Of a stretch of 64,000 nucleotides of DNA, positions 633 through 34,696 are shown piece by piece. The stretch is from Candidatus Omnitrophota bacterium (lineage in GTDB: Bacteria; Omnitrophota; Gorgyraeia; 2-01-FULL-45-10), in the NCBI GenBank assembly GCA_903843285.1, contig CAIMPC010000057.1, positions 6,456 through 70,455 of the forward strand, in the 5' to 3' direction. Numbering within the stretch: the stretch's first letter is position 1; each line of letters starts with the position of its first letter. The translations under genes and the position numbers were made by a program. Under the pieces are notes generated by a model that worked only from the letters and a program-made list of their open reading frames with translations, was not told where the DNA came from and searched no databases.

Positions 633-3600
633 TTACGCGGCGGAGCGGATCACGGTGATCGCATTTCTGTAGGTCTCGATCTCCTTACCATAGTCGATCG
701 GTAACACCCTGGGCAGATACTTAAAGATACCATCGGCATACGTAACACCAGCCGGTAATCTGCCTTCGGCTACTAATTGATCCAGCAGATCATTCGGCAT
801 GGTGACCATATTTAGAAGCGTCTGATAGTAGTTAATCGAGGCGATCTCTGTCTTCCCGCTTCCCACATCCACCGATTGAACCTCGAGGAGTTTTTCCCCG
901 CTGACAGGTCTAACACTATCAAACTCGCCTTTAGCGTAGGCTATGCCGATATTATTGATATTGATACTGCGATTATCACCGATCTCTGTGATAAGTTCTT
1001 CATACGGTATGCGGAGACTGCCGTCTGCATTAAAGCCATTCACAAACCTGATAGCATTAATATCTCCCTCATATCCGGAGGCCCTGATGAATGCTTTGGC
1101 TTCATCAGACGTCTTAAACTCTTTACCGTATATGAAGCAGTTAACCACACCCATCGCATTGGCCTTACTCATATTATCAGCGAAGAACATGTTAGAGGAT
1201 GCCACTGCCTCGGTCGTCGCCACCGCGTATGTCTTCTCGGCAAACGCGGGATTATCAGCCAGAGGCGCATTATATGCAAATCTTATTCCTTCTCTTCTTA
1301 CATTAATAGCAATCTTTAGCGCTTCTTTTCGCTCATTCAGCCATGATGTTTGCAACTGATATTTAAATTTCTCATCAAGGTTGTATTCTTCTATCCGTTT
1401 AAGCTGTCGGCGTATTTCTGTCAATATCTTCACGAGCTCTTCTCTGGTCTTCGAGCTTACAATGACGCTGGAAGCATCTTCTACGACCTGACTCAATGCC
1501 GGAGTAAGCACGTTGTAAGCACCTTGGCCCAGCATACTGTTATCGATAAATACACCATTATATTTACCGGCGTCTACATCCGCATTAAACTCATTCAAGT
1601 CGAGGGTAACTATATCGGCTCCATGGATAATTCCGGGTTGCGGCATTAAGCTAATAATGGTTTTGACGCGGGCCATGTTCTGCGCATCTGCCTCGGCGTT
1701 ATCTGGACCGCTTTGTTTCTGCAGAGCTATAATAAATTTCTTTCCACTTGGAACATGCACGCGAGCTATATTCTCTTTTGCCCTGACCTCTGCCACGCGC
1801 ATAGCAAAGAAGCCGGAGATAAGCGGCATGGTCCCTAACATAGCCGTCAGCTCACTCTTAAAGGTCTCGTGCAATACTATCAGATTCCTGGCGCTCTCAA
1901 GGAAACCGTTTCTATATAGAATTGAATCAGCTATAGATTCTGTATATATTGCCGCGGGAATGGTACCTCTTAAGGGAGATTCTTCGGTCGACCTTTGGCC
2001 TACCTCAGAATGACGTAATTGGATCTTCTCAAATCCCTTAAAGAATTCTATCCTTACCCTGCCCTCGCTATCGATGGTCCGGCGCGAGAGATCAGGCAGT
2101 TTCATTATAATGTCTACACCATCAAATCCCACACCGTAATATTCTCTGAAATACTTCCCAAAGGCTTCTGTTATATGGCTATTTAGATACCATAGCCTGA
2201 TAGCCATTGCCGTCGCTTCGAGGCCTGCCGTAAGGCCCACAGCCGCTCCTATTAATGGCAATATGTCATGGGTTTGCGATGCGGCTATCGATAGTAATAT
2301 CATACTTACAGCGCCCAATGCACCCAGCGCGGCAAACCCTGCAGACCACCACATGGCAACTTCGACATTAAAAGGATGCGCGACTTTCCTCGGCAATGCC
2401 CTTACGCGGGCTCTGGTAGCTGTTATCGCGCTGGGCCGGGGGGCATTATTAATCGCATCTATAACGCAATTGATTACCTTATAACCGGGTTTCCAATATC
2501 CACTGCCTGCGATAAAATACAGCTCTTCAGCGCTGATACCCAGTAGTTTGTTTATGTTCACGGGGAGCTCCAGATCTATGTCTTTCATAGTCCTGGATAC
2601 CGCTCGCTCTCCACGGTTAATCTTACCGGGATCCATAAAGATCTTTTTCGGTTCGAGGCTATTACAGCGTCTTTCGAGCTCCAGCGCTGTTTTGGGCCTT
2701 ATGACTCCGGCGACATATTCGCGGGTATTACTAAAGGTGACTCTACTTAATAGTAAGTCCTTCTCATCCGGACTTGGTATTAAACATTGTCCCGTCTTTA
2801 GCTCGGCTCTTTCATCTAACTTCTTCAAATCCTTCTTCAAAGCTTCTTCGGACAATTGTTTCTGTATTCTTTCCTCTATGTCTTGTCTTGGGTCACCTTT
2901 TAATAGTGGGATAAAGCCTTTGTAGTCGCCCAGATTATTGCCCATCGTAACGGCTAAATCCAGGGGCCTGGCTGATACCGGCAGTTCCACTGCCTGCATA
3001 TGCACCTTACCCTGCATATTCAAACCAAAATAGACTACATAGACACTATCTTTTAAGAAATCCAGTGTGCTGTTAAAATATCTGGTGTAATCACCGTAAA
3101 TAGGTTTAGTTGCCTTGAATACGGGGTAATTATGGCCAAACAAGCTCTGAGTAGGTTCCAAGTGCAGTAATTTATAGATCCAATGAGGTATAGGAGTCTT
3201 TGGCCCTGCGAGATACACGCCATTTTGATAGCTCACATAATTTTCTTTGGTCATCAACATCATTTCGATCGGGACCTCAGATCCAATCTGCCTTTTGCCT
3301 GAGGCGTCCATAGTTATTCGCGCGCACTGGAACGTAATATGCACAGCTTCATAGCCTCTTTTATGTATCGTAGGCGAGTCCGGATCGACCAAGCCGTCTC
3401 CAACCCTCATTCTTCCACTACTAAGAATTCTGGTAGATTCACATAATTTGCGAGCAATGAGGTCGCGAGTATCCTTAGTTTGAGTAACTACACGAACCCC
3501 GAGGATATCCTCTACCTTATATCCTTGTTTACCACCCTTTTCCGGATTAATGAATTTCTTATAGCAGCTGTAAACATTCTTAGGACGATATTCGACTGTG

Positions 3601-6600
3601 ACGTCCTCATCTTTAGGTATTAAACCGTTTCGCTTGGCAAGCCTTACATATGCTTCCAATCTCCCCGCTGCCAATACTAATACTTCTCTGAGGGTTTTTT
3701 TGTTTACATCGATGCCATTTAAGGCGACTGTCATCTGGCTGAGGGTCCATTTATAATTTCCCGGATATGCGGCCTTAAAAGCCTCATCGATAATATCGCT
3801 GGCTACTTCGTATAGGCCCAGCCTTTCAGCTACCGGCGAATAGATATATTCGACTTCTTTAAAAGCCTTTTGTTTAGCATTTTCCGGAGCACTATAAACA
3901 GAATCCAGTTTATAGGCCAGCAGTAACAGCATGCTATTCAGTGATCCCGTCAGCTGGATCATCATATTCATGTAAAACTCCAGAGTATTTTCTCCCCTGA
4001 GGAACTCTGCAAAATCTTTTTCTTTGGTGGAATCGAGAGTCTCGATTGCTTTTATAATATCTTCTATTTTTCCCGTACCCTTATAATTAGGGATCGTATC
4101 GAGCATCGCTCGTAAATTCTTCCGATCAATATTATGCAGTAACGCGGCGACGATCAAACGCTCATCTCCTATACCCCAACGAGCCAGGCTAGCCGCCATG
4201 TTAATAGAATGGCGATTGCCCGCGGCCATTTCGAATGCCGCCGTTATGCTATTCTCGGCAGAGACGACTTCTGCGCTGGAGAGCGTACTCTTCGCCCTGA
4301 ATAAGTTTATTATATTCCTAAGAGCCCTATTCGAGGCATTGATATCAGAGACGGATGTCAAATCCTCACTGATCGTTATCATATGCTTCTGGAGCAATTT
4401 ATAAAATTCTTCGTCACCCTGCTCGAACGCAACCCTCTCAGCCTTTGCCTGTAACTCTCTCTGGCTTCTGATAAAAGCTCCGAGAACCAATCCAAGCGGA
4501 TTATTCTTCTCGCTGTTATCAGTTTTATGATAGATAAATATCCTGTTATTACGGACAGTGGCCACTAAATTTGCGTGTGTGCCGCGCGGAGTTAACGCCT
4601 CCAAGGCTTCGTGCAGAATATACTCCTGGATAAGATTTCGCCTATACTTATTAATCATGGCATCGGATAATCCCGGGTAGCCAATGATAGTTCGCAGATC
4701 GCATGTCAATATAAACCTGACGACTTCCGGTGATAAACCGATCTTAAATTGGTGTTTGCCGTTAGCATCTACTTCCGAGCGAACCTTAGCCAGGCCCAAC
4801 AGGTGACCGGTATCGGGGGCTACTAAAGGCTCGAAGAAGAATATGGCTGATTTGTCTGATAATAGATCTACCGCGGCCTTAACGCGCGACGGGACGTTGT
4901 GCGCCGACACCACTCCGCCGACACTCTGCTGTAATCCTTCGGATATATCTCTAAGGGCTTTAGTCGAAGTCTCCAATTCTGTGATTTCAGGGCCATACTC
5001 TGCGGTCGGGTCGCTGATAATGCGCAGTAACTTCTCCTCTTGGCCTTTTTCGTTCATCCTTACTAATGCTATCGCCGTTTCGTAGTCAGGCGCATTTATT
5101 ACGTCCGCTATGGCCTTCTGTGCTCCGACAACCTCATTGCCCGCATGCCCGATCGCGCCGCCGAGCGGGGCGGGTGGGTTCTCGGTAGGTGGATTCTCCA
5201 AAGTAATAATCTTATTACCTTTGGCATCTGTGACCAGCTTGGAATCTACGGTTGATACCACAGGTGTCTGCGGTACGGCCGTTAAAGCAGCGGTCCTGAT
5301 GCCGCCCTTACGCTTTATAAAATCGATAATACTAATCAATACAGGATTCTCTGTTGCATAAAGAGCACTTTCACACACACGTATTTGGCATAGCTCATTA
5401 ACCTCCGTATACAGAGATTGCTGGGCTTTAGTAATGTTCTGGTTATTGATGTCGAGAAGAATTGATTGTTCCTTGGGTTCCAGGGAATCCCATATTGTTA
5501 TTGTTAATTCGGATTTGGCCTTATTAGCTACTTGCAATTCTTCATCATTTTGAGCTTTGGCTAGAGCAAAACGCACATCTCTGAGAGAATCAGCAAATCT
5601 CTTTGCGAGGGATAATGCCTTATTGGATAGGGCTTTATAAGCTACTGCCTTAAATTGTTCAAAACTCAGGTCATTTACCCTATCATATAGAACGGTGGAG
5701 GCCTTATCTCCATAAACAGCCTGAATATCCTTTCTATTATTATCGGTGAACCTATTGGATTGCCACATATCATTGGTTAATTGATCTTTTGCCTCATTAG
5801 CTGATTGCAATTCTTCATCATTTTTAGCTTTGGCTATAGCAGAACGCACATCTCTGAGAGAATCAGCAAATCTCTTTGCGAGGGATGGTACTTTCTTAGA
5901 TAAAATCTCATCGACTGCCTTCTTTAATTCTGCTAAGTTTAGCTCATTTACCTTGTCATATAGAGTGTCAGAGGCTTTATCACCATAAATATATACGAGT
6001 GCTGATTGCCCTTCAGGTGTCAGGGACTTAAATAGATTTTCTACCAGTGCGGATTTGGCCTTATTAGCTGATTGCAATTCTTCACCATTTTGAGCTTTGG
6101 ATAGAGTAAAACTCACATCTCTGATAGAATCAGCAAATTTCTTTGCGAGGGATGGCGCCTCATCTGCTAATACGCTATTTGCTACTCTCATAGATATTGC
6201 CAGGCTCAGCTCATCGACCCTCTTATATAGAGACTCCCGGACTGTAGTAATGTCCTGGTTATTGATGTCGAAAAGAATTGATTGTTCCTTGGCTTCCAGG
6301 GAATCCCATATTGTTATTGTTAATTCGGATTTGGCCTTATTAGCTGATTGCAATTCTTCATCATTTTTAGCTTTGGCTAGAGCAGAACGCACATCTCTGA
6401 GAGAATCAGCAAATCTCTTTGCGAGGGATGGCGCCTGATTAGACAGGATCTCATTGACTGTCTTCTTTAATATTGTCAGATTTTGCTCATCGACCTTATT
6501 ATATAGATACTCCCGGGCTTTAGTAATGTCCTGATTATTGATGTCGAGAAGAATTGATTGTTCCTTGGCTTCCAGAGAATCCCATATTGTTATTGTTAAG

Positions 6601-9600
6601 GCGGCCTTATCGCTACCAGCATTGGCTTCGCCCTTGCCTATGGAGATGCGGACGGTTATTAATTGTGAGGAGAATTGTTTTGCGAGGGATGGCACTTTCT
6701 TAGATAAAATCTCATTGACTGTCTTCTTTAATATTGCCAGGCTTAGGTTATTTACTATATCATACAGAACGGCGGGGGCTTTATCACCATAGCTATCTAC
6801 GAGCGCTGATCGTCCTTCAGGTGTCAGGGAATTAAATAGAACTTCTACTAGGTCGGATTTTTCTTTATCAGCCCTTTCTTTAATAGCGTTTGCTTTAACG
6901 CTATTGGTTTCTTGCTTGGCTTTCTCTATTAAGCTACGGACAGCTATTAATTTTAAGGAGAATTGCTTTGCGAGGGATAGTGCCTCATTGGATAGGATCT
7001 TATCGACTGCCTTCTTTAATTCTGCTAAGTTTAGCTCATTTACCTTGTCATATAGAATGCTTTTGGCGGATTTTTCATCACCATAAACATCGGTGAGAGC
7101 TAATTGTTCTTCAGGTGTCAGGGAATTAAATAGAACTTCTACTAGGTCGGATTTTTCTTTATCAGCCCTTTCTTTAATAGCGTTTGCTTTAACGCTATCG
7201 GTTTCTTGCTTGGCTTTCTCTATTAAGCTACGGACAGCTATTAATTTTAAGGAGAATTGTTTTGCAAGGGATAGCGCCTCATTGGATAGGATCTTATCGA
7301 CTGCCTTCTTTAATTCTGCCTGGCTTTGTTCATCGATCTTCTTATATAGATACTCCTGGGCTTTAGTAATGTTCTGGTTATTGATGTCGAGAAGAATTGA
7401 TTGTTCCTTGGGTTCCAGGGAATCCCATATTGTTATTGTTAAGGCAGATTTGGCCTTATTAGCTACTTGCAATTCTTCATCATTTTGAGCTTTGGCTAGA
7501 GCAAAACGCACATCTCTGAGAGAATCAGCAAATCTCTTTGCGAGGGATAATGCCTTCTCAGATAAGATCTTATCTGCTACTATCTTAGATTCTTCCAGAC
7601 TCAGGTCTTTTACTTTCTTATATATAGCCTTTTTGGCTTTAACTTCATCATAATCATACTTATCCAGAAGCGCCCGCTTCTCGTGACTGTGTAGCGCATT
7701 CCATATATATTCTTGATCGATTGTATTCCGATTACTCTGCACTTCATCTGCATTAACACTGCCTGGACGGATAAACCAGCCAATCCAAGGCACCAAACAG
7801 GCGACCAGCTCTCCATAGCCTGCATAATGCGTATTCTCGTGAAACTCAATATATCGCCGTATAAGTTTGTGTAAGACGTCGAATCCCGATGACTTCTTTA
7901 TTTCTCGCTTATTATCTAAGGAGATCTCAACCCACGCAATAGGCCCTGCACGTCCATGCATTGCCTTATTAATTTGTGCTAATGCTATCGCCTTTATTAA
8001 TGCATGGATCAAAAGATAACTACATAATACGCCAACTGCTACAAATACTCGGAACGTTATGTCCTGCCAACCATAACTTAGTGCCGCTATACTAAAAAAT
8101 CCAGCGCCAAAAAGCGCCTCAAAAATAGCCGTACGTACGATGAGATTCTTATCAAATGGCTGAATCCTTCCACCAAATTGATTTATTAATCTCTTGGCTA
8201 TTTCCTTCAGTACTTTATCTTGAGTCTTAGATAAGTTTGGCCGAGCGCCACCCGCAAAAACTCGACCCAATATTACAAAATATATCTCGTAAATTATACC
8301 TATAATACTAGCAAGGATACCAATTACAGCACTGCTTGTTACCATGGAGGCAAAAAATACAACAAATTTTGTGGGCAATCTCATCTGTCCCTGCCACGAT
8401 AGCGTGCTCATCACTCCACTAAATCCGCCATCACTCATAGGAACTGTAAAAGGTATAACACCCACTAAATGCCTCAGGACATCCACGGGGAAGAATGATA
8501 CCCATATGCTTATTATTAATATTCCAACACCAATCCCATATGTCCACCATTCCACACCTCGGGTCTCGTAATATTTCCCATTAACTTGCTTGCCTATTCC
8601 GAGCATCCAGCTCCATCCCGCAGCAAACATAAATGAGGCTAAAATGCTGGAAGTGCGCCACACGGCATTTGTCGATATAAATCCTGAGAACGATAAGGCA
8701 AATATGACAGGGATGGTATAAGTAACTATCTTTAATGCGGTATCAAATTTCTTAAATTCCGATGGCCATTTCTCCTTATCGGCACCATTTTTGATGGCAT
8801 AAATATACATAGCAATATTCGCAGTTATAATGGTTGCGATTATACCGCAACTTAATACAAAGTACGTTCCATTTAACTGAACTGCCAAGGAAGCTATATA
8901 GGGAATATATGACACGTACGCAGACAATATAACGCTGAGTGAAATAAGGATCGTCCACTTGAACATCTTTAGATAATAACTAATCATCGGATTGCCCTCA
9001 CCAACTACGGCGGCATTCCATACCAATGTGGGAGGCTTAACGTCCGGCAAAAATATATGATAGTATACAATCTTTAGGACCACGGGTAGTTGTCCAACCA
9101 GTAGAATTGGTTTAGTTACAATCTTCGTCAGGAAAATAGTGGTCGAGGCAACGAATTCGACCAGTCCTTTTAATAATTGCAAAACAAACAGGCAAGTTCC
9201 CTTTATACGCCCGTGCTCTTTGTATATCTGATTTCGCTCGGACGTGAATAAGCTTTTCAGCTTCGCTAAAGCAGGGAAAAATTTTGGACTGGTTAACAAT
9301 ATAATTATTGTTAAGAACGCAAATTCCCCGATTAATGGAAATAACATATCGAGGCTACCCGGTATAAACATAGCCTTAAACATGAGCACTAATTGAATAA
9401 GCCATATAAACTCTCCTAAAAGCCCTCTCACCACAAGATCTGACTCGTATCTGTGCCCCGGAGATAATCTGGGAATCCACATCTCGCCTGATGCTTCTCT
9501 AGCATTAATCCTATTACTACCTTCTTTAAATAACGATCTCAGAAGTAGGGTGCTTACCACCGCTCCTCCGAAGCACCATCCGATCATCCACAGCAGGGAC

Positions 9601-27600: not shown

Positions 27601-30600
27601 CAATCTCGTAGATGTAAATACTCGTCTTCACGTATACTAAATAACTGTGGGGATTGAGATGACTTGGCTAATTTATCAAGCAGATCCAAAATATTTTCCA
27701 ACCTTTTTAGATTGCTATCAATTTTAGTAAAATAATCAGAGTCATCCACAAAGCTTATATCTGCGTAGCCTATAAGAACAGCTAGGGCGTTGGGTACATC
27801 ATAATATGATTTGCCCAGCTTATTAAGCGACTTATACAACGCTTTTTTATATCTGGGTAAGTCTTCAGACACAACCTTCTCTCTTACAGGTATACCCCTT
27901 ACTATAAGAAGTATTTTATCTTTATAAACGTTCATTTCTTTTAGTAATTTTTCTATTTCCTCCGCCTTTTTCTTGCCATCCCGTTTTTCCAGTGCTAATC
28001 TTATGTCCCCCACTACTTTACGCATGTCTAACACGGGTTCTCGCAGATCCTTAACTAATCCCCGTGCCAACTCTCGCAAACTATCAACTTCTGCGGCCTC
28101 TTTCGATACTGTCTGACTCGAAGATGGCGGCAATTTCACCTCTGGCGCCGATGGTTCTCCTGCCGCTGATACAGACGCTCCTACGAGCACAGGCGCTGGG
28201 GCAATAGGTGTAACCGGTACAGGGGCTTCGACCGACACCGGCGCCGCCGAGGTAACTGTCTGAACAGAAACTAACGGCTGTATTACCGGTGACTCCACAA
28301 CCACGTTAAAGTCAGTTGCTCCAAATACGGAACCGCACATAGTCATTTCTACTAATCTCGCAACACCATCAGGCGTCATCGCCGCACCCTGAGGGAACTG
28401 AGATGTCGGCGCGATCTTTCCGTCACCAATGCCAAGCTCTTTTTTTACAGCAGACTTAACGCTTTCCTTATCATTACCATTTATGCCTTTTCTCCTGGCA
28501 ACCCTATTAAATTCTTCATCGAAATTACCTTTAGCCTTGGCCCGATTCATCGTCTCTGCGATATCGACTGCGACCGAGTGGAGTACTAGGTTACGCGTAG
28601 CCTGGTTAGAATTCTCGAGCTCAGCCAGGCGATCTTCCACCGTCTTAAGATTAGATATTTTCTTACCGTTACCGGATTTTGAAATTAGATATTCTTCTAT
28701 CTCGCGGCTCGTCGACGGTCTCGTCTTAATATTTGCTATATTGCCATCCTTATCACGCTCTGCCGAAACCGTGGTGTATATAAAATCTGCCTGATCGGCC
28801 ATCGTCTTAGTCTCGATGGCTACATCTTCGGCCTTTATAATGCCCTTAGCCCTAAGCTCTTCGTAGGCATTCCGATAACTCTGAATCCAGAGCTTCTTCA
28901 CGCTCTCGACATCCTTCTTCTCCATCACCGCCTGGGCGAGGCTCGTGGCTACTATATCCTGTATGAAAGACGTCACCTTTCCGGGATTCGCCGCTTCGTC
29001 GCCGAGATACTTATCCGTAGCTACCTGATACTTGCCGCTATCTATCAGATCCGAATAAGGCTCGGTCTTATTAGTCAATATCGCTACATACGGCCTCTCG
29101 CCCTTAGATGCGTCAAACTTCGGCAGGATTACTATGTAAGATGTCTTACTCTTTCTTAGCAGTTCTGTGATGCCCTGCGAGTGATAACCACCGGTGATGA
29201 GCGCCGCCACATTCTGCCGGCGATCCTTCATGGTCGCGATCGTATTGGCCAGTATGGTGTGGTTTCTCTTCTCGGCCGTCTTATAGAAATCCAGCGCCAC
29301 AGGCACATCATTAAATATCTTCTCGAGGTCATATCCTGCGCCGATGGTGACGTTATATTTGATGGAGGCATCGCGTATGAAAGACGCCACAGAAGTAGCA
29401 TTGCAACGATCAATATTTGTAGCGAGGTATCCGAAGTCGCCGTTAGTGAGCTTAAGATCAAACAGGTCTTTTACGAACTCCACGCACTTCATAATATCGT
29501 AAAGTTTCCGCTGGTCATCGCCGGTAAATAACTTCTCTTTTATCTGGTCCTCAAAATTCTTCACTTCTTCAAATATAGCGGTGAGGTCTATGGACTCATA
29601 CAGGGTGATATAGTCGGTGTAGGCTATCAGATTCTTATATGGCTCGGCGTCGATGTGGACTCTCTCTGCCTCTTCCTGCAGGAAGACATAATATTCACTG
29701 TTAGAGATCTTGCCCGTTTTAAACGACAGAGACTTCAGGACTATCTGCTCGAGGTCCTGCTTGGCAGCCTTTTTGCTCAGTGCATCTATAAGCGCATCTC
29801 TCTCCTTATTCGCCCTGTCAAAGCTTATCGTCTTCTCGAGCTTCAGCGACTCTACCAGTTTCGTCAGATTTTCAAAATTCTTATAGTCGACGCCGGTCTT
29901 TGCGGCCAACTCCCTCACCAGGGCCCATCTCTGGGTAAAGGTGATCTTACCATTCTTGTGAAGAACTGAATTTGTGGTAAGATCCTTTAGTTCCTGGGAA
30001 TAGATCTTATCACGAAGGCCGGCCAATGCAGTAAGCAGGTTATCGATATCGCCCTTAATCTCGTTATTTGCTTTATATACAGCCCTGAACTGATCGAGGT
30101 TCTCCCGGTATAGCGGCTTATTTTCTATACCGTATAGGGCGATAGACTTATTGGATGTGATAGCGAAAAATTCGCCTGCTGATAATTTACCGGCGCCCAT
30201 GAAGTGCCTGGCCGTATTCTTTTTAATATTATCGTCAGGGAATGTCCTGAGGATGGATGTATCGACATAGCCCGAAGATCCTTCTATGGCTACGAGATTG
30301 ATGTCATAATTTGTTACCAGCGAATCGAGGACGGAAGCTATCGATTCCTGGGCACCGAGTGACGCGTGGGCATCCTGGATATTGATGATCGTCCTGTCGC
30401 CGGGCGCGGTGTAGACTTCTTTCGTTACAGCGACGTCTTTGGGGACGTTAATGGGGCTATTTACATTGACGGGAGTCTTAAAATTCGGGGTGGCATTCTG
30501 AGCCTTTGACCATATGGGCGAGCCATTCTGCGCCCAGATAAGATCTTGATTTACAAATGTAACGACGAGGAGAATCGCTATCGAGCGTATCCAGATCTTA

Positions 30601-30692
30601 TGCCGAGGACTTTGTAAGTCCATGATTAAAGGTCTGGAACCAGGCTCTTCCCTCATAGAGTCAATATCCTGTCTGACATCCAATGTCTTCAT
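633..30692 (-). CDS. Giant multidomain protein (10,019 aa single ORF). Membrane-anchored, with Tiki/TraB-like, lipobox, HExxH, SecA-like ATPase, multi-TM blocks, tandem repeats, coiled coils and an RSH (RelA/SpoT) domain.
   Basis: The six-frame track shows one uninterrupted frame. Antisense ORFs are only short. Recognisable motifs include TGGGKT and TNIAHRGIDI (SecA-like), LVHESVHH, RPKNVYSCYKKF / GYEAVHITF / VPIEMMLMTKENY (RSH synthetase) and AALLHN (degenerate HD). Two embedded copies of the intergenic repeat family suggest possible fusion or assembly issues. Confidence 0.6.
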   Translation of the reverse strand: MKTLDVRQDIDSMREEPGSRPLIMDLQSPRHKIWIRSIAILLVVTFVNQDLIWAQNGSPIWSKAQNATPNFKTPVNVNSPINVPKDVAVTKEVYTAPGDRTIINIQDAHASLGAQESIASVLDSLVTNYDINLVAIEGSSGYVDTSILRTFPDDNIKKNTARHFMGAGKLSAGEFFAITSNKSIALYGIENKPLYRENLDQFRAVYKANNEIKGDIDNLLTALAGLRDKIYSQELKDLTTNSVLHKNGKITFTQRWALVRELAAKTGVDYKNFENLTKLVESLKLEKTISFDRANKERDALIDALSKKAAKQDLEQIVLKSLSFKTGKISNSEYYVFLQEEAERVHIDAEPYKNLIAYTDYITLYESIDLTAIFEEVKNFEDQIKEKLFTGDDQRKLYDIMKCVEFVKDLFDLKLTNGDFGYLATNIDRCNATSVASFIRDASIKYNVTIGAGYDLEKIFNDVPVALDFYKTAEKRNHTILANTIATMKDRRQNVAALITGGYHSQGITELLRKSKTSYIVILPKFDASKGERPYVAILTNKTEPYSDLIDSGKYQVATDKYLGDEAANPGKVTSFIQDIVATSLAQAVMEKKDVESVKKLWIQSYRNAYEELRAKGIIKAEDVAIETKTMADQADFIYTTVSAERDKDGNIANIKTRPSTSREIEEYLISKSGNGKKISNLKTVEDRLAELENSNQATRNLVLHSVAVDIAETMNRAKAKGNFDEEFNRVARRKGINGNDKESVKSAVKKELGIGDGKIAPTSQFPQGAAMTPDGVARLVEMTMCGSVFGATDFNVVVESPVIQPLVSVQTVTSAAPVSVEAPVPVTPIAPAPVLVGASVSAAGEPSAPEVKLPPSSSQTVSKEAAEVDSLRELARGLVKDLREPVLDMRKVVGDIRLALEKRDGKKKAEEIEKLLKEMNVYKDKILLIVRGIPVREKVVSEDLPRYKKALYKSLNKLGKSYYDVPNALAVLIGYADISFVDDSDYFTKIDSNLKRLENILDLLDKLAKSSQSPQLFSIREDEYLHLRDWIADPPSTAEELKTKLELEARTKEYIDEKVATFERTALNPGTVAKDNFRHSEEGQRSTEESKNEILPRSARQDDGRSLLHPSAPSLQNDAEFGISQQSHTLLLAMVIGATLFISGCGSTSQVASSYNTAKAMAGPTREKTQIGEVEATPTAISKETVLSHDESKANIPISSGQFALDQKKLSDAANKYFADMANKDYFQDIAKKFKIKGDTSADPLLLSSAIVNGTLVLRDNDDFSLRNMPQNRIEKFSDIVSSVWENVDKASLPNYIKSKSNKELQKILFATSVFDPETYLYLEKNNVAILLVSTNWFSGATSGDSFFGWIAKDPRGAKIELRKENSTVSNIGVLVHESVHHRRGDVAKGYGELYLKLLGYLTEIFRDLPSFERATFEAEGKFYKEVLRINVPLKNLSIAYLNQRWTLSFISAVTWITSIALLLLPFFAVKAVQALRAKQTPARTPGRYISRSRGRGDRGFGNVGLVLFGAAGLAVLALVAAPLVTSIGAVISYFPLATAIGTAMAGLVIAGIKLYDGIARLLLNAQRTTARILAPPKAKAQPKEIIPEAVKPIELTPNEIETRLLQETGYSNYRPGQIEAMRELKEGRFTELRTGGGKTITLAGAALSRFRERGERVIIKTHEDALTTQAMEKDNIGDVLSRCGEDVVTGFILPHVTDDGKVEEMGVIFENGVRKETTADEVFDRCAIIYGKWDRFVHRHLKESLGIGRKAMNNHKYFSLSDETDLMLVFGSATPCVISGDKLEDWQDRIVVRRAIDEIVRDTLLTDKSMFYVPEGSKEVSLTDKAHGALRNAVGKYAKDNPKLAELINQNSENFAIDALKAHLFYSIGVQYYFEDGKVYVRDEHTGAKKVGMNFGEGLQQAIEIMAGVDEVSPETYTLASMTIEQFEKNRDLITDYAGASGTMEAKRFESIYPGKEVRTIAGLSQTLDKSAGHTGFKTREDKWTMLAERLNKRLGNGQPILLKVESDAEVKELRNYIEENCEAKLAECGIIINEANGGNAEEFNRAISIAGYGNILTITTNIAHRGIDITIRGRFLNKDGSEGEEVPPLDQLAPGLHVISAYLDESEAFEIQTQGRGDRGTNKGSWEGLFSLDENTLKEHAKLLNQQLAGLRGAIERSDTKLVESLTAEVRDRIASEKNRSDEKRRAYEQEVFLYQQQVLNLLSMTASKDEFVKFLRETGSYEGLRAGVKSDSELDSKIADLQVLIQKKLTDELSKFQTEQQSTRKRLEYLASQSRVGLKGAFVQFDKELSNAAFLARNFNNKISDIKDFITVIVASAMGSEVENIQETRPYSFTNLLSEGFVKTAASIILVLGIGTLFARYGLSSFTKELLDPIIQSLISQPVIAGVATASLLIITVYFSQIYGKKIGQLDTSTTDFMRFTAGVGKGSFLNALIRWTGVMALQLLAGPGLFTAAGTLIAAVAHPVIAVGSLALPAIPLAFGAAVMAFLANVILIGLFRKDLSKVTDVTPTRFESGVNSLVRAMVISVSVLFAIQIAGGSLFITSVSLGAIAISSLAANVVGREAERGFFRARWPMYIGNALGIIVGAGLVTLSSLFGSAGMLSSISVAPLISVPMAVIGVLAIIFQFVQAAKLGQEALSAKQSYWRTFAESFIPSSRNILMYAMAIPAAFVIFSGVMQTALFVSAIGVTAILINKYGVNIEKMMGRATSEYFSGMLGKVAVASAIAVPMVVYPVVAYAQEGQKVLGEIGSGKKVDPAAVTAAISRMRDSSQRANGWRTLGRNVGNVVDEAANGRIITTVAAAPREVAQAKPQRERAPPADALDKILDHGALRKLFSDYEHIPVADQKLQNERYMNRLEAIVSSPGYSQSGYLAKLAASARVPTAPVVTVSTQKVEQTPNLQGYATDIVYPDIDWLVQSKPSDPDHNVPIPLLIYNNKAEKYTRFQHRNGHDMGQIQIFHKATGQRTFSGAEILAFDGNGHMTFIARGLSVGANMNIGTITQASIGKIRQSVYQIFFNVDTEHYTGTIRMILKPAGDSISISLTSDLTMKKDVNPATDMQSNFLHAVLGLKDPMKKGQKIALNRNLVVNKDGLKAVPVVSRIAPSAQPSVRLPVAMPSAQPNVAPLTQRPSVTYPSRYQASAMNASNMQMLNESITYAMRNVASSEQGRPRSENLRARVATAMRDYKLTVPGFVDLFERNRDPYAAYTNAGLGTVTLIKATPGTVLMPEQEIGSIPEEALRKHAENDLICAMMSAYQEYEKSERDEVANTALAGDLQTRCDEMYKNHRSSDAVRYKATRMLSAAKDKLREAKFKKQECLKLIKALRGESLSTGLTIDIRKTDQDRSLFENLLSDGLSGTPELELNKIFGYLPNGWGLDVKPPDVVKAIYVNYQQSLYEFGLNIHISLYQLKYIQEEIAAANKYIASLQAELDIKGNDEKFISQEDEILLVDKLQQARARLNDLLNRKDKFILDLGKAGIDARKLRPEEINDKMMVFERSRAIENRLSHDLPVLRKNGVNPPELLQALRAHVANQGNISDFGNLLFNYDAATSRASIRLELKQLLYDNVRARGINLPVDQIEVMRQDVEVAKAQKDIALSNRYDQILRQYLEYSASRTRLKQIKDKLIKAEELLRAIKEQNLDLKVKFDTGLRDELRVTEDIERMKTDLQAAEKENRVNEMVLGEILAPYSITIDEIKVPNFSLKDMKYHLSKFFPRGHDGDAKIWFIRSRIIGLATRVKVAQAGGGLVEFMELGPADPDSIVSARNDLNQAIKESRNLLIDMINTYQREWVNLTGANRAIAEIVKERDDSRRKLDEIKDKKSLPESDRIKADVELKDKEERLAVAEKDKLRLEESFALAGLDLNALTGLTNVANATNLPDEMKALAYLVNNKAEAMRRGTAVEINENQIFGFKRFNTPGSYINMLDGLPYEAGFSGLSGMLSYMDSVVYGQNLQNARRDENFPLLSRLVELGERADWASLFSRYRTAKANIENINNDLEKARSEKIKIEMLDAVGQKPLKEKSDAYKFTIDVIRNLEEKKIEAERVCSDLAYSMLMKLQTSGGAEFILQLLNEPKAQNVPKVTEINMDRAEDSDISLEIDSKTLAPDQSGGQLVLARERLRSYMRLLTDDWSAQYRATLSSGERKEIAWAELQQIRDQYEHNPPTVSMEKYNRVWLDWLEAKADFDKNLGMFKHKSEELITYLRWFGLDKKADGIRVATVSIDDDVKAESLKREKSEQARAEWIRKYAEWEEVGRQERADSDSKKLRAIPVKKAALVDKISTIVSNEDASGKNLLKWEDIVSRVNSNYVSRLLERSEMIAKPLGIGKDVEKIKALAACFEAYRLTANLNEEESLKYLDEYIFVCESVLPRVRRAIGGNGKLPREFSRFFDPNLGMAGAVDPSLMGLLSNYARMSTTLQSPHYVSPSAKMTAIDVADARKEVLGKFQSDKKYFVWYKNLCKAGTPNAVADMVRRSGIARNEFTSWWISFYRDNDRYEWGKLDKDLEPFTRELLQPVAERLHSRKVSTSDNGEDIGLLNSLARQFMLNKWISIEDFRQAAKDPEFRKELGLRLDEITSLLVTLKEDLNLRADSSDPKREMYKHLSDNQLSVLPEANMVNWLDTLLAEENNRINRRPGMGALIEGHIRDEKRRFESIRTIGDSLYWTKFGRDNNLSASEIITLRDKFDKFFSNINRTLREANMNPLNPGDPEIQGFITATIFGLMGDPDATVAWKDFFDKEGNINTPAQKANVVELFGTVLPNLKGSLASVGLSPKEINDYATAIARDLVVDPSVWKNFFNSDGRIRNIGNINELFKSVLPSLKLALKKSGFTRREIKDNAMAMARDMVENKAKSPWIKNGWIKVAAYGNARTIKIDAITVKHIFKVAGDIATQAVLPGAKRIPGLLGRDATSKGIRMSIAMDMEANKKKSAWIKNRWIYEDESRPGKPIIIDADAVNHILRINAELAELAKSKNKNIHRLAGNSSIVQGRRITTAMDIVAKAQRSVWVRNKWIYEDESRPSKPITINAGEVNHIYGVTDKLALEAVRCNVEKFKGDDPVSEGRRMSASMDMEAKKKKSAWVKNKWIQMTGAIINPEAVNQIYECEHTIELEATKLGIKELIGDDPDAQGRRIAIAIDLMVKPRTWAGYFDRNGKVPDEASGRNLVKLYTIVMPNLERSVGEYLPLDEGEKNGILMAIGRVITVKPESWKDFFDSNGNAVNKLLVRILFQAVATDRGMERIQKFLKHIDTWYMLESAEEIFQKGAAMAEAKYFAIQVIDADELKGDIDNFNNGIIDFSALKEKIEAYRDEDFSLREQVHDASRKWSKEYDVNVWVYAKGLSYFSKAVRKAIREYGPRYELATGKALTVDALFENVAYAKKIRLIAGQELLNEIDHSRHPNRLRDNACETVKIKIHDGAGVEKEDAITAYDYIKGLPKASDGSNIGPKGKATEGLMNEDVTFGEAISQGMKYMFRKRYTIDTRGLVRETAAEMYLQAVYMLHNRDELGAPVRLNMSDASNLVETAERERYQKEVMGSFILNESLYTKKEKELPSVIADGLMKDYIGKLSDDRLKAFLYLMTQPVFDTRTLVDNLMDVNGLSNIRISGYADRYHNLKRVDVEGKIRTGLVDKIKAALPLSTPGQRRGFVARMYIKALESRKAGKGFNDIKWIKDTFEDIAWAQGENYANMQTFIGWENIFPVLSQLRLESDELMTWVQKFQAHKKFETAFKADLAFMGLFLGSERYDDIAFILRKWRIDFGRFPSPGRAVSELKEFEALTSDLMPFKLTPAQVAAKKGELIEGQSSVSKSFRGFLGRIICDGNPSIAMEQALGVIDTKCEELDKVITPSLRTFLIAAELRKKEAVEDIYVRFNAKHSVLVDYERKVNDERKEKIQEAIVIEKDPARKERVLKSLMEKARLLDVPIDEDEAGILLHKMTGLGYDEDGVILVYEVLPVKVREIYKKAYGKGDAQLTTDDKSNISTLAESIGEKAVFMYSRHREDMERSIRKEKIDYIAAKLKVPGLSPERKRGLEDLKNEAGLWSFKNHIGIEMNLLEEVLRLSRLTKDQFNELGIYLTDDETRKLATNAVMSGLGEDDIRNLVDRTKDTYKMIMDATASARIVDPKVDMQDVLYLVDTWFKVGLIEKSDTFKIGDASQVDALAQSIAPRLEGIGIDKSVIHNIAAELSAHHIISAPAQIDMVVDEYDTVPIASAIRPYLSRVEPSIVEDASVNEVSTRIRDSLGNRINSIDDVKKALMKEDGLKADAQEISERIITELCVHNIRISGIIAIIKPELKRVGIANDKEIADIAHEILRKDINPTVVKMLTARAIALKNEIAEAVRIENAKSVQNPTSSPRSLYDIAQEITTKQLFTYLDENAVMGATNTLGSLETLKYDRDSFERIVTRPINAMDRQRVEGRLRGEVSEGGVPKYVREKNWSKFEKFRQYLWEKFRWGNLNSVFVLTVLVVVGTYITGLGKKRYNDGIIARLKPKPAEPPADEELLTKHLKMNEVARLLDPVEAERRLENVVESLAITQKHFLYHWFNTVVTAALVLTILACYNYNNFMASNLILYTVTTWWLLAIIPGVYLSSAGIMLFNNVVKPGRSLLEPEFRRTDITEQGKIPDDEKTMIHMAFPMRKEKDLATGVLKDMPNFNSVMGDGTAEGIGAVEKMMEEARDPNGNRDYNLYFDLLIQVFGGSGTEGEEHYKATLKLVQERLDAMPEHVRKRVYVHLRRQKMTKPPTHYSVQRWLREDDDEYCKIDPRYNVDPDISKAKNKDQPTLNNEWMNPIVETLGGDPADPDDLRNIRQESINDKSIPPLMRKSRIKNTLVYDPGNLISYAERADHKGEGILYLVSVMADRRNTESFFRGKMIYSDVHATIHSNIMKDFPQTMLGHVAQAQYIIEDSLRAPGKYAYRNEDFYRDMITTNAYQKVWAYYNYLKATDDILPKSEDEVLTILSGKCKYLDRVVIEEDPMFNYGQEARREATRWMYVFDLPQIFVIRIVPFIRDYPVTAAILAGAIPMAVIVGLIGTSLLWMIGWCFGGAVVSTLLLRSLFKEGSNRINAREASGEMWIPRLSPGHRYESDLVVRGLLGEFIWLIQLVLMFKAMFIPGSLDMLFPLIGEFAFLTIIILLTSPKFFPALAKLKSLFTSERNQIYKEHGRIKGTCLFVLQLLKGLVEFVASTTIFLTKIVTKPILLVGQLPVVLKIVYYHIFLPDVKPPTLVWNAAVVGEGNPMISYYLKMFKWTILISLSVILSAYVSYIPYIASLAVQLNGTYFVLSCGIIATIITANIAMYIYAIKNGADKEKWPSEFKKFDTALKIVTYTIPVIFALSFSGFISTNAVWRTSSILASFMFAAGWSWMLGIGKQVNGKYYETRGVEWWTYGIGVGILIISIWVSFFPVDVLRHLVGVIPFTVPMSDGGFSGVMSTLSWQGQMRLPTKFVVFFASMVTSSAVIGILASIIGIIYEIYFVILGRVFAGGARPNLSKTQDKVLKEIAKRLINQFGGRIQPFDKNLIVRTAIFEALFGAGFFSIAALSYGWQDITFRVFVAVGVLCSYLLIHALIKAIALAQINKAMHGRAGPIAWVEISLDNKREIKKSSGFDVLHKLIRRYIEFHENTHYAGYGELVACLVPWIGWFIRPGSVNADEVQSNRNTIDQEYIWNALHSHEKRALLDKYDYDEVKAKKAIYKKVKDLSLEESKIVADKILSEKALSLAKRFADSLRDVRFALAKAQNDEELQVANKAKSALTITIWDSLEPKEQSILLDINNQNITKAQEYLYKKIDEQSQAELKKAVDKILSNEALSLAKQFSLKLIAVRSLIEKAKQETDSVKANAIKERADKEKSDLVEVLFNSLTPEEQLALTDVYGDEKSAKSILYDKVNELNLAELKKAVDKILSNEALSLAKQFSLKLIAVRSLIEKAKQETNSVKANAIKERADKEKSDLVEVLFNSLTPEGRSALVDSYGDKAPAVLYDIVNNLSLAILKKTVNEILSKKVPSLAKQFSSQLITVRISIGKGEANAGSDKAALTITIWDSLEAKEQSILLDINNQDITKAREYLYNKVDEQNLTILKKTVNEILSNQAPSLAKRFADSLRDVRSALAKAKNDEELQSANKAKSELTITIWDSLEAKEQSILFDINNQDITTVRESLYKRVDELSLAISMRVANSVLADEAPSLAKKFADSIRDVSFTLSKAQNGEELQSANKAKSALVENLFKSLTPEGQSALVYIYGDKASDTLYDKVNELNLAELKKAVDEILSKKVPSLAKRFADSLRDVRSAIAKAKNDEELQSANEAKDQLTNDMWQSNRFTDNNRKDIQAVYGDKASTVLYDRVNDLSFEQFKAVAYKALSNKALSLAKRFADSLRDVRFALAKAQNDEELQVANKAKSELTITIWDSLEPKEQSILLDINNQNITKAQQSLYTEVNELCQIRVCESALYATENPVLISIIDFIKRKGGIRTAALTAVPQTPVVSTVDSKLVTDAKGNKIITLENPPTENPPAPLGGAIGHAGNEVVGAQKAIADVINAPDYETAIALVRMNEKGQEEKLLRIISDPTAEYGPEITELETSTKALRDISEGLQQSVGGVVSAHNVPSRVKAAVDLLSDKSAIFFFEPLVAPDTGHLLGLAKVRSEVDANGKHQFKIGLSPEVVRFILTCDLRTIIGYPGLSDAMINKYRRNLIQEYILHEALEALTPRGTHANLVATVRNNRIFIYHKTDNSEKNNPLGLVLGAFIRSQRELQAKAERVAFEQGDEEFYKLLQKHMITISEDLTSVSDINASNRALRNIINLFRAKSTLSSAEVVSAENSITAAFEMAAGNRHSINMAASLARWGIGDERLIVAALLHNIDRKNLRAMLDTIPNYKGTGKIEDIIKAIETLDSTKEKDFAEFLRGENTLEFYMNMMIQLTGSLNSMLLLLAYKLDSVYSAPENAKQKAFKEVEYIYSPVAERLGLYEVASDIIDEAFKAAYPGNYKWTLSQMTVALNGIDVNKKTLREVLVLAAGRLEAYVRLAKRNGLIPKDEDVTVEYRPKNVYSCYKKFINPEKGGKQGYKVEDILGVRVVTQTKDTRDLIARKLCESTRILSSGRMRVGDGLVDPDSPTIHKRGYEAVHITFQCARITMDASGKRQIGSEVPIEMMLMTKENYVSYQNGVYLAGPKTPIPHWIYKLLHLEPTQSLFGHNYPVFKATKPIYGDYTRYFNSTLDFLKDSVYVVYFGLNMQGKVHMQAVELPVSARPLDLAVTMGNNLGDYKGFIPLLKGDPRQDIEERIQKQLSEEALKKDLKKLDERAELKTGQCLIPSPDEKDLLLSRVTFSNTREYVAGVIRPKTALELERRCNSLEPKKIFMDPGKINRGERAVSRTMKDIDLELPVNINKLLGISAEELYFIAGSGYWKPGYKVINCVIDAINNAPRPSAITATRARVRALPRKVAHPFNVEVAMWWSAGFAALGALGAVSMILLSIAASQTHDILPLIGAAVGLTAGLEATAMAIRLWYLNSHITEAFGKYFREYYGVGFDGVDIIMKLPDLSRRTIDSEGRVRIEFFKGFEKIQLRHSEVGQRSTEESPLRGTIPAAIYTESIADSILYRNGFLESARNLIVLHETFKSELTAMLGTMPLISGFFAMRVAEVRAKENIARVHVPSGKKFIIALQKQSGPDNAEADAQNMARVKTIISLMPQPGIIHGADIVTLDLNEFNADVDAGKYNGVFIDNSMLGQGAYNVLTPALSQVVEDASSVIVSSKTREELVKILTEIRRQLKRIEEYNLDEKFKYQLQTSWLNERKEALKIAINVRREGIRFAYNAPLADNPAFAEKTYAVATTEAVASSNMFFADNMSKANAMGVVNCFIYGKEFKTSDEAKAFIRASGYEGDINAIRFVNGFNADGSLRIPYEELITEIGDNRSININNIGIAYAKGEFDSVRPVSGEKLLEVQSVDVGSGKTEIASINYYQTLLNMVTMPNDLLDQLVAEGRLPAGVTYADGIFKYLPRVLPIDYGKEIETYRNAITVIRSAA
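1978..2015. repeat. Partial (half-arm) copy of the hairpin repeat embedded in-frame in the giant ORF. Translates as ...LRHSEVGQRSTEESPLRG....
   Basis: GATTCTTCGGTCGACCTTTGGCCTACCTCAGAATGACG matches the 3' arm of the other copies. Confidence 0.4.
3200..4450 (-). other. RSH (RelA/SpoT homolog) region inside the giant ORF. A degenerate HD domain (about 4100-4450) is followed by a (p)ppGpp-synthetase-like nucleotidyltransferase domain (about 3200-3600).
   Basis: HSINMAASLARWG...AALLHNIDRKN resembles an HD domain with the HD motif changed to HN. YRPKNVYSCYKKF, EDILGVRVV, RGYEAVHITFQ, VPIEMMLMTKENY and IPHWIYK align with the RelA/SpoT synthetase motifs GRPKHIYSIYRKM, DxxGxRxI, NGYQSxH, EIQIRTxxMH and AHWxYK. 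Confidence 0.5.
5400..7620. repeat. In-frame tandem repeat array inside the giant ORF, about 8-9 units of about 270-290 nt (about 93-98 aa each).
   Basis: Near-identical about 170-nt blocks start at about 5447, 6253, 6545 and 7385. The motif CAGCAAATCTCTTTGCGAGGGAT recurs about every 275 nt. Protein repeats are of the form LSLAKRFADSLRDVR...AELKKAVDKILSNEA. Confidence 0.6.
15260..16700. repeat. Second in-frame tandem repeat array inside the giant ORF, about 5 units of about 230-250 nt (about 77-83 aa each).
   Basis: Repeated KSAWIKN[RK]WIYEDESRP[GS]KPI.I.A..VNHI protein units. Nucleotide repeats GGCCTGGATTCATCTTCATATATCCAT occur at about 15645 and 15860. Confidence 0.55.
24300..25900 (-). 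other. SecA-like / SF2 DEAD-motor ATPase domain inside the giant ORF.
   Basis: Walker A ELRTGGGKTITLAGAA at about 25770-25800 resembles the SecA M(K)TGEGKTL motif. ILTITTNIAHRGIDITIRG at about 24440-24500 resembles SecA VTIATNMAGRGTDI (motif VI). Confidence 0.45.
26541..26566 (-). other. HExxH zinc-metalloprotease-type motif (LVHESVHH) about 245 aa after the internal lipobox.
   Basis: Reverse complement of CTATGGTGTACGGACTCGTGGACCAG encodes LVHESVHHR. A hydrophobic segment follows. Confidence 0.35.
27254..27290 (-). other. Internal Met followed by a lipoprotein-type signal / lipobox (MVIGATLFISGCGSTSQ), immediately downstream of the embedded repeat copy. Possible start of a second ancestral gene.
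   Basis: ATG at 27288-27290 (minus). L-F-I-S-G-C fits the L-x-x-C lipobox. It is located directly after element copy 3. The n-region is short and uncharged, and no in-frame stop separates it from upstream codons, so the call is tentative. Confidence 0.3.
27308..27483. repeat. Full-length hairpin repeat element (copy 3, with both about 35-nt terminal inverted repeats) embedded in-frame in the giant ORF.
   Basis: Flanked by GGGACTGTTGCGAAATGCCAAATTCCGCGTCATTCTGA and TCAGAATGACGGAAGTTGTCTTTCGCAACAGTCCC. The internal GATTCTTCGGTCGACCGTTGGCCTTCCTCAGAATGAC arm is homologous to the 34697-34838 and 60304-60445 copies. Confidence 0.6.
29150..30400 (-). other. Tiki/TraB/GumN-like domain in the N-terminal part of the giant ORF.
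   Basis: The N-terminal QDAHASLGAQES motif resembles GTAHVS, and ITGGYHSQGITELL is a G-G-x-H motif. The same motif set occurs in the stand-alone ORFs 40954..41643 and 42409..43047. Confidence 0.3.
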
Positions 30693-34680: not shown

Positions 34681-34696
34681 CTCTCCTCCATATCTT

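Follow-up and report, generated by a model that had tools for sequence, protein, structure and literature searches.

Can a bacterial reading frame of 30 kb be one real gene and, if so, what kind of protein does it encode? The question is raised by a 64,000-nucleotide stretch of DNA from a Candidatus Omnitrophota bacterium (GenBank assembly GCA_903843285.1, contig CAIMPC010000057.1, positions 6,456 to 70,455 of the forward strand; hereafter the window, to which all positions refer), which carries a giant open reading frame (ORF):

633..30692, minus strand: giant ORF, 10,019 amino acids (aa), ATG start; residue i starts at window position 30692-3*(i-1)

We conclude that the ORF is one genuine gene, carried by an uncultivated Omnitrophota bacterium and encoding a 10,019-aa multi-pass membrane protein, and that it belongs to the published class of giant SecA-type Omnitrophota proteins, at the small end of their range.

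A single gene of 30 kb

The single uninterrupted 30-kb ORF of 10,019 aa reported in a first-pass annotation of the window was borne out both by frame statistics and by the presence of the same locus in independent assemblies. The lone stop in its translation is the final codon; within 633..30692, stops number 761 and 884 in the other two sense frames and 264–691 in the antisense frames. Outside the giant ORF the longest stop-free run in the interval is 208 codons, and antisense ORFs are short, as had been remarked, the biggest encoding 202 aa (14641..15249). Because stops are so frequent in the other frames, a stop-free run of 10,019 codons is not a product of chance. An alternative genetic code was rejected as the cause of the long ORF, all three stop codons being missing in frame and the neighbouring genes being of normal length under table 11. 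The G+C content is even along the window (0.41–0.50).

When the adjacent sigma-54 and Der proteins were looked up by exact sequence, at least six samples proved to contain this locus. The giant ORF is annotated at 10,019 aa in ERZ1426818 (an 82-kb ENA/NCBI contig), at 9,921 aa in ERZ27313164 (an independent ENA contig) and as 401 + 9,616 aa in JGI 3300025162 (contig Ga0209083_1000598). The first 9.7 kb of the ORF are base-identical in ERZ27313164 and show a single-base difference in the JGI contig. Since the independent assemblies agree, mis-joining can be excluded for the first third of the ORF, and the overall length recurs among them; a chimeric origin is very unlikely. The 98-aa shortfall of ERZ27313164 equals one 294-nt tandem repeat unit (window 6801-7350, aa ~7780–7965), where two neighbouring units share 92% DNA identity, which suggests either real copy-number variation or collapse of the repeat in short-read assembly; the exact protein length is uncertain by one such unit.

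The ORF also contains a full and a partial copy of a dispersed repeat of ~140–175 nt (inner inverted repeats CGTCATTCTGAG/CTCAGAATGACG) that resembles a miniature inverted-repeat transposable element (MITE):

27308..27482, strand not assigned: MITE-like repeat, full copy, in frame in the ORF (aa 1071–1129, 175 nt), with terminal inverted repeats GGGACTGTTGCGAAA
1977..2012, strand not assigned: MITE-like repeat, partial copy in the ORF (aa ~9560–9572, RHSEVGQRSTEES)

Both copies are in frame and free of stops (translated RHSEEGQRSTEES...). The full copy of the ORF is also seen in independent assemblies of the locus, and two ~5-kb short-read contigs terminate at or beside it. Elsewhere in the window, full copies occupy 34696-34839 and 60304-60445, with partial copies at 516-568, 32350-32398, 61734-61801 and 63921-63960; the terminal repeat was absent from 79 loci of other Omnitrophota genomes.

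Domain anatomy of the giant protein

The anatomy was established from Pfam and NCBIfam searches on overlapping 1,400-aa tiles, a hydrophobicity scan, tile-against-tile BLAST, two AlphaFold models and fold searches. From the N- to the C-terminus, the following features were distinguished:

30531..30608, minus strand: N-terminal hydrophobic helix (aa 29–54), a helix in the AlphaFold2 model; signal anchor or cleavable signal
28833..30455, minus strand: N-terminal module (Nmod; aa ~80–620), with a Tiki/TraB/EreA/ChaN-like alpha/beta core
28113..28295, minus strand: Pro/Ala/Val-rich linker (aa ~800–860), ~20% Pro as read from the translation
27246..27302, minus strand: internal hydrophobic signal-like segment (aa 1131–1149, LLLAMVIGATLFISGCGST), conserved in homologues
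26343..27245, minus strand: first HExxH module (aa 1150–1450), with H1378-E1379-x-x-H1382 invariant in the alignment
26031..26342, minus strand: ~3 hydrophobic helices (aa 1451–1554), from the hydrophobicity scan
24117..25883, minus strand: SecA-like ATPase (aa ~1604–2192), comprising nucleotide-binding domain 1 (NBD1), the preprotein cross-linking domain (PPXD) and NBD2
22470..23675, minus strand: first polytopic membrane block (aa 2340–2741), ~9–12 helices in the hydrophobicity scan
16593..22445, minus strand: long region without family matches (aa ~2750–4700), partly helical, with short heptad-like stretches only
14997..16565, minus strand: repeat array 1 (aa 4710–5232), ~7 divergent copies of ~75 aa with 32–51% identity (tile-against-tile BLAST)
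7992..14735, minus strand: conserved core (aa ~5320–7567), found in the same order in other proteins of 2.5–8 thousand amino acids (kAA)
7743..7991, minus strand: juxtamembrane module (aa 7568–7650), FHENTHYAGYGE = HExxHxxGxGE at aa 7617–7627
5337..7712, minus strand: repeat array 2 (aa 7661–8452), ~8.5 alpha-helical repeats of 92–98 aa, neighbours up to 98% identical
2823..4214, minus strand: RelA/SpoT homologue (RSH)-like region (aa ~8827–9290), HD_4, then a RelA_SpoT synthetase-like domain, then a TGS-like stretch (by eye)
2280..2336, minus strand: single hydrophobic helix (aa 9453–9471) between the RSH-like region and the C-terminal module
636..1775, minus strand: family-specific C-terminal module (Cmod; aa ~9640–10019), ~280–380 aa

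The mosaic, modular make-up of one giant gene that had been read from the translation was borne out by the domain, repeat and homologue analyses. Several of its elements were recovered as first described, i.e. the N-terminal membrane anchor (the helix at aa 29–54), the Pro-rich linker, a block of some 10 membrane helices after the SecA-like ATPase (aa 2340–2741), a second membrane block with FHENTH (block at aa 7011–7567, FHENTH at 7617) and a distinct C-terminal segment, which proved to be a conserved module.

The family consensus ...WAQxGxP follows the N-terminal hydrophobic helix and leads into Nmod, whose core (aa 88–189 and 495–524) is interrupted by a ~300-aa helical insert in the AlphaFold model (pLDDT 78.7). 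Nmod matches the alpha+beta fold of TIKI, TraB, EreA and ChaN, with a parallel beta-sheet core and flanking helices, and the earlier assignment of a Tiki/TraB-like domain passes these structure tests. Residues D107, H109, E137, R476, N483 and H504 are at least 90% conserved among 40 aligned homologues. Active TIKI enzymes are defined by a His-Glu pair and a basic residue; judged from its sequence, Nmod appears to present D107/H109/E137/R476/H504 in the order expected of such enzymes, the acid at position 107 being Asp, not Glu. No Pfam (E ≤ 0.1) or NCBIfam (0.01) match was obtained over aa 1–1400, TraB_PrgY_gumN and Erythro_esteras included. A lipobox proposed further downstream was dismissed, the candidate ISGC lying 1,143 residues into the chain and its Cys not being conserved (it is missing in five homologues that retain the hydrophobic segment).

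The first HExxH (aa 1378) is invariant across seven aligned sequences, and its module has no Pfam or PDB profile match. The second, HExxHxxGxGE, sits right after the last helix of the second membrane block, in a module shared with four other proteins; the motif is invariant in 5–6 aligned copies. The protease motif suspected earlier is therefore conserved at both 1378 and 7618 (FHENTH at 7617), but neither site gave a match to a peptidase family. Both sites adjoin hydrophobic helices and are followed by G-Y-G-E-L: HESVHHRRGDVAKGYGEL (aa 1378–1396, ~26505-26561) and HENTHYAGYGEL (aa 7618–7628, ~7809-7841). The two modules may be distant duplicates; tile-against-tile BLAST found no link between them.

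The presumed SecA-like ATPase is substantiated by significant matches in three collections. Pfam recognized SecA_DEAD (PF07517), SecA_PP_bind (PF01043) and P-loop_SecA (PF21090), SecA in the PDB was matched at E 4e-28, and NCBIfam SecA gave E 2.5e-37, but at 128.5 bits against a cut-off of 814 for NF009538. The Walker A (GGGKT at 1637) and Walker B (DETD) motifs are intact, and TNIAHRGIDI is also readable in the translation. The SecA wing/scaffold (PF07516), present in canonical SecA matches, was not found at E ≤ 0.1. A homology search with the SecA-like part and the membrane block returned mostly canonical SecA, at E~1e-25 versus E<1e-79 for giant-type homologues, in which the first membrane block is conserved jointly with the SecA-like part.

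Beyond this block, a crude and uncalibrated heptad score placed 6–14% of residues in aa 3500–4250 above the 99th percentile of shuffles and gave no signal over most of aa 2750–5000. The continuous coiled coil of ~1,700 aa that had been described was not seen with this score and was rejected on the patchiness of the heptad signal, which, from an uncalibrated score, is weak evidence. Of the two repeat arrays noted earlier, the first exists, but with a period of ~75 aa and ~7 copies instead of ~80 aa and five; the second keeps its period (~95 aa, here 92–98 aa) but has ~8.5 copies, not nine. The conserved core between them comprises two transmembrane (TM) helices (6457, 6577), a soluble part of ~400 aa and the second polytopic block (~11 helices). 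Across the whole protein a Kyte-Doolittle scan distinguished ~28–30 hydrophobic segments in five clusters.

In the RSH-like region, HD_4 was matched at 28.5 bits, its HD motif reading LLHN in the giant and LLHK in homologues. As the motif has changed to H-N or H-K in the giant and the three family members aligned with it, the hydrolase half is probably inactive. The RelA_SpoT domain scored 24.3 bits versus a gathering cut-off of 27, and TIGR00691 matched at E 1.9e-20 (72.8 bits versus a 499-bit cut-off). The giant's synthetase motifs are RPKNVYSCYKK, EDILGVRVV, IEMMLMT and PHWIYK, and the family keeps RxKxxYSxxxK, EDILG and PHW..KL. Neither an ACT domain nor a ribosome-binding C-terminal half was detected in the region. 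The RSH-like assignment made at first reading holds, but its description as an alarmone synthetase is unproven, the Asp of the HD motif having been lost and a synthetase motif altered; alarmone synthesis by this domain is possible, yet doubtful.

The last ~200 aa of Cmod adopt a Rossmann-like alpha/beta fold according to an AlphaFold model and fold searches, and a Cmod profile gave no significant match to PDB sequences. Membership of the HAD superfamily was considered and rejected, as the combination of a Rossmannoid fold with the motif I DxD after strand 1 was not found. The extreme C-terminus (window 636-700, last ~20 aa; 28 relatives) is strongly conserved as ...YLPRxxPIDYGxEIExYRNAxxxIRSAA, with the final Ala invariant in the Cmod alignment, and could be a terminal recognition signal.

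A modular family centred on Omnitrophota

Sequence homology places the giant, as an enlarged form, in a modular family confined to the phylum, whose members start with Nmod and, in a subset, also end with Cmod. A homology search with aa 1–2200 recovered 95 proteins, nearly all from Candidatus Omnitrophota/Omnitrophica, the one exception among the named close homologues being labelled Eisenbacteria. Nmod heads its own protein in all 95 (local BLAST), and the cargo behind it varies widely, including HAD, HD, radical SAM, cellulase, PEP-utilising, GNAT, GGDEF, methyltransferase, HEAT and kinase domains. Scanning one genome per GTDB species with the Nmod motif AA[LI][IV]TGG[YF]H yielded at least 282 confirmed loci, mostly very long ORFs. 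The best 80 of these 282 lie in Omnitrophota metagenome-assembled genomes (MAGs) or in third-party annotation (TPA) MAGs titled 'uncultured Planctomycetia', often several per genome. As the best identity reached only 73–76%, the genome from which the window derives is not among the GTDB representatives. In 55 of 67 loci the Nmod ORF extends past the fetched DNA, i.e. to at least ~3,900 aa wherever 10 kb was fetched, and closed Nmod ORFs range from 598 to 3,237 aa. The link to Omnitrophota giant genes drawn in the first-pass annotation is thereby upheld, by 95 + 5 close homologues and by the best 80 of the 282 loci, all from Omnitrophota-type MAGs. Scanning the window for Rfam families and tRNAs gave no match, and the window holds no rRNA or ribosomal markers, so that its placement in the phylum is by protein homology only.

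Among the relatives already retrieved, local BLAST/HMM searches found Cmod in 28 proteins or ORFs, always 0–11 residues from the C-terminus, and every Cmod protein with an intact N-terminus also carries Nmod. The family includes members of only ~2,000 aa built as Nmod + HAD + RSH + Cmod. A subset of relatives retains the giant's order of HExxH module, SecA-like domain and membrane block. An exhaustive HMMER search with aa 6440–7639 recovered only 23 relatives among 1.84 billion representatives, including proteins of 5,233, 7,079, 7,321 and 7,990 aa. Nmod starts the 5,233-, 7,079- and 7,990-aa relatives, and the first two of these share aa ~5320–7471 with the giant in the same order.

Nmod-headed genes are repeated on single contigs in PLNN01000019.1 (three), JAVCCB010000015.1 (two) and WJMG01000045.1 (two). 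In three loci an ORF ending in Cmod lies shortly upstream of the next Nmod ORF, so family members can sit in tandem.

Proposed function and alternatives

SecA-type and RSH-type domains use ATP or GTP and must face the cytoplasm. With moderate confidence we favour the view that the gene encodes a giant SecA-type multi-pass membrane protein with recurrent modules, in which a cytoplasmic motor would aid the protein's own insertion or threading, alongside candidate hydrolase sites and an RSH-like domain that may be concerned with a nucleotide signal. The protein would reside in the cytoplasmic membrane, with its SecA-like and RSH-like domains in the cytoplasm and both end modules on the outer side; basic residues ahead of the first helix favour an N-in orientation, which would leave Nmod external. 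The SecA-like motor and the adjacent membrane block would help to thread or insert the giant's own extracytoplasmic segments, a proposal in keeping with the position of the motor directly before a co-conserved polytopic block. The Tiki-like domain and both HExxH sites might hydrolyse peptide or ester bonds in the giant itself or in envelope partners, and the RSH-like domain might bind or make a nucleotide signal. Self-export via the SecA-like domain has already been proposed for the class (West-Roberts 2023, bioRxiv 10.1101/2023.11.21.568195), and the earlier description of the protein as a possible translocation machine is plausible and in line with that proposal. Its companion claim, that this is not a simple adhesin, fits the search results: no tile matched an adhesin, dockerin or carbohydrate-active enzyme (CAZyme) domain in Pfam or NCBIfam.

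Several observations weigh against this account. Hydrophobic segments number 1 + 1 + 3 before the SecA-like domain, a parity that does not suit an outside Nmod and a cytoplasmic SecA-like domain unless one of these segments fails to span the membrane. A PDB profile search with the first membrane block matched neither SecY nor any other protein of solved structure, and the HExxH modules match no peptidase family (Pfam, PDB profile). The canonical EVQIRT of synthetases is consistently ME[MV]M[IL]MT in the family, and IEMMLMT in the giant, with the Glu kept and the Q and R replaced; this consistency suggests, from the alignment, a site that is constrained but altered. About 3,500 residues (aa 2750–5320 and parts around) are without domain assignment. 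In the JGI contig, Lys402 is changed from AAG to TAG (window 29487-29489; contig locus 12776-12778) within the helical insert of Nmod, which could reflect genuine nonsense variation or an error in the consensus. Finally, many Omnitrophota giant genes have a type II secretion system (T2SS)/type IV pilus (T4P)-like locus upstream and PilZ and solute-binding genes downstream, and neither the T2SS-like locus nor the PilZ/solute-binding genes reported beside class members are adjacent to this gene.

The same modules could instead belong to a self-processing polyprotein, cut into several separate membrane and soluble proteins by its own Tiki-like and/or HExxH sites, or by signal peptidase acting on the internal signal-like segment, so that the giant would be only their delivery format. 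Three candidate hydrolase sites with conserved catalytic-type residues speak for this, as does the conserved internal hydrophobic signal-like segment, followed by small residues, ahead of an HExxH module; the TIKI family includes site-specific endopeptidases, and RRSP is a module of the giant autoprocessing MARTX toxin. The modules also occur in far shorter members such as the ~2,000-aa Nmod + HAD + RSH + Cmod proteins, and cleavage by N-terminal peptidase domains has been raised for the class (West-Roberts 2023). Against these points, there are no known cleavage sites, the HExxH modules lack a peptidase family assignment, and the TIKI fold is found in esterases and a haem-binding protein as well and therefore does not imply a protease; we regard self-processing as fairly unlikely. 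We give little credence to a surface coat for contact with prey or host, as in Velamenicoccus archaeovorus, i.e. an extracellular layer for adhesion to and wall degradation of other cells. It is the published hypothesis for Omnitrophota giants, the long helical repeat arrays could serve as spacers, and type IV pilus-like PilM/N/O genes lie on the same contig; but the tiles hold no lectin, glycoside hydrolase or other CAZyme domain in addition to lacking adhesin and dockerin domains (Pfam/NCBIfam), two of the three recognizable enzymatic domains need cytoplasmic nucleotides, and the upstream T2SS-like locus and downstream PilZ/solute-binding genes are not adjacent.

That the ORF is an artefact of mis-assembly across repeats, or a decaying gene not expressed whole, is barely credible. 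The nonsense codon 402 of one assembly would fit it, as would the 98 aa missing from another at a near-identical tandem repeat and the full and partial mobile MITE-like copies, at the full one of which short-read contigs break. Yet a stop-free run of 10,019 codons cannot persist without selection where other frames hold 264–884 stops, its length was reproduced in three independent assemblies with the first 9.7 kb identical or one base off, the MITE copies are in frame and stop-free, and the modules are found 25–76% identical, with motifs intact, in many genomes.

Returning to the favoured account of a self-inserting membrane protein, we may extend it, quite speculatively and at low confidence, to a 'bracketed cargo' system in which Nmod and Cmod would define a phylum-specific, hitherto undescribed shared route of insertion, processing or display for hundreds of Omnitrophota proteins, from enzymes of ~1.4 kAA to the giants, the latter being auto-translocases with their own SecA-like motor and a private channel-like block. 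If it were true that the end modules are export or processing signals, this would explain how such giants are handled and would provide a simple marker, AA[LI][IV]TGG[YF]H, for the family in fragmented metagenomes. Giant genes occupy a large share of small Omnitrophota genomes, and this one is short enough to study, being ~10 kAA long and reproducibly assembled, with three recognizable enzyme-like domains. It also offers features that are testable family-wide: an Nmod whose catalytic set appears intact, a module found strictly at the C-terminus and a motor co-conserved with a membrane block.

Flanking sequences and neighbouring genes

Candidate expression signals lie upstream of the giant gene:

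30818..30845, minus strand: sigma-70-like promoter match (TTGACA-16-TACACT with TG), 125 nt 5' of the ATG, a consensus match only
30936..30953, minus strand: terminator-like hairpin and T-run, 3' of the upstream Der/EngA gene

A Shine-Dalgarno-like AAGGGG stands 8 nt ahead of the ATG. As the terminator-like hairpin closes the Der/EngA gene, the giant gene seems to begin its own transcript. Every gene in the window is on the minus strand. Directly upstream of the giant gene are those for Der/EngA, a TPR protein, rubrerythrin, sigma-54, an NtrC-type regulator, a response regulator and PAS/Cache histidine kinases; downstream, only 632 nt fall within the window, and no gene lies there.

Between two histidine-kinase genes are three successive ORFs (229, 258 and 212 aa; 40954-43047, minus strand) with no Pfam match, of which the 258- and 229-aa ORFs, those nearest the giant, are also called beside the giant gene in other assemblies. 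Further upstream, a complete-looking gas-vesicle gene cluster (46000-59940, minus strand) encodes GvpA three times (46000-46305, 47743-48036 and 59725-59940), GvpK, GvpG, five GvpL/F paralogues (one with a fused DnaJ domain) and a GvpN-like AAA protein, together with a Cdc48-like AAA protein, ArsA, Hsp20 and a DnaJ zinc-finger protein. In a text search, no paper was seen to report gas vesicles clearly in Omnitrophota, the papers that contain both terms not having been read. A PilM-PilN fusion (500 aa), PilO (177 aa) and an unannotated 284-aa ORF (60954-63904, minus strand) lie 30 kb upstream of the giant, and PilM/N/O are the sole pilus- or T2SS-like content of the contig.

Comparison with known systems

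Omnitrophota giants with a divergent SecA domain and numerous TM regions have already been published, with N-terminal regions devoid of identifiable domains and TM predictions considered unreliable (West-Roberts 2023). The view that genes of this size are very rare, taken in the first-pass annotation, is untrue of this phylum: 5,761 proteins of at least 10 kAA have been catalogued, and 24–28% of sampled Omnitrophota contigs carry one (Nielsen & Lui 2026, bioRxiv 10.64898/2026.06.07.730766). A 20-protein PF07517 (SecA_DEAD) architecture cluster is among the two largest in that set (Nielsen & Lui 2026), and ORFs longer than 20 kb occur in 77 of 116 Velamenicoccia genomes. With the SecA-type giants the present protein shares its phylum, many TM helices, SecA_DEAD and SecA_PP_bind without the wing/scaffold beside TM regions, an N-terminal region without a Pfam match, a mostly unannotated chain and internal repeats. 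It lies far below the West-Roberts set, whose members exceed 30,000 aa (>90 kb), and at the bottom of the ≥10-kAA set of Nielsen & Lui. It also differs in content: glycosyltransferase, glycoside hydrolase, methyltransferase, NUDIX and dockerin/TSP3 domains, typical of the Archaeovorin and Dockerin-type subclasses, had no Pfam or NCBIfam match in any tile. The giant of the V. archaeovorus LiM type ('Archaeovorin'; 39,678 aa, 42 TM helices), the sole class member with proteomic support, is likewise a membrane-anchored Omnitrophota giant, but, as described, has four times the length and many carbohydrate-active and methyltransferase domains.

Among better-known systems, canonical SecA and SecA2 align with the giant through NBD1, the preprotein cross-linking domain and NBD2 over ~450–570 residues. 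The giant's region nevertheless reaches only ~128 bits versus equivalog cut-offs of 725–1493, is without the C-terminal linker, and forms a separate similarity class; it sits within a 10-kAA chain, where a polytopic block is fused to it. Long RelA/SpoT homologues have HD_4 and RelA_SpoT in the same order as the giant and share the motifs RxKxxYSxxxK, DxxGxR and HW.YK. From the superfamily of TIKI/TraB/PrgY/GumN, erythromycin esterase, ChaN, HopBA1 and RRSP, Nmod differs by the ~300-aa helical insert that splits its core, and by always forming, in the giant's family, the N-terminal head of very long proteins. A functional analogy is offered by MARTX toxins, bacterial proteins that are likewise very large, consist of many modules and contain repeats as well as an internal protease, and their RRSP module has the TIKI fold; unlike the giant, they are secreted by a type I secretion system and are without TM blocks, a SecA-like motor or an RSH domain. 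No homology was seen beyond the TIKI fold.

The terms TraB and Tiki had no occurrences in the three Omnitrophota papers searched, and a term search of Nielsen & Lui returned neither TraB nor alarmone. The Tiki/TraB-like N-terminal module, the bracket formed by Nmod and Cmod, and the RSH-like cargo are apparently new, being absent from the Omnitrophota giant-protein literature searched; set beside the published class of SecA-type giants, to which this gene belongs, they are incremental but useful observations.

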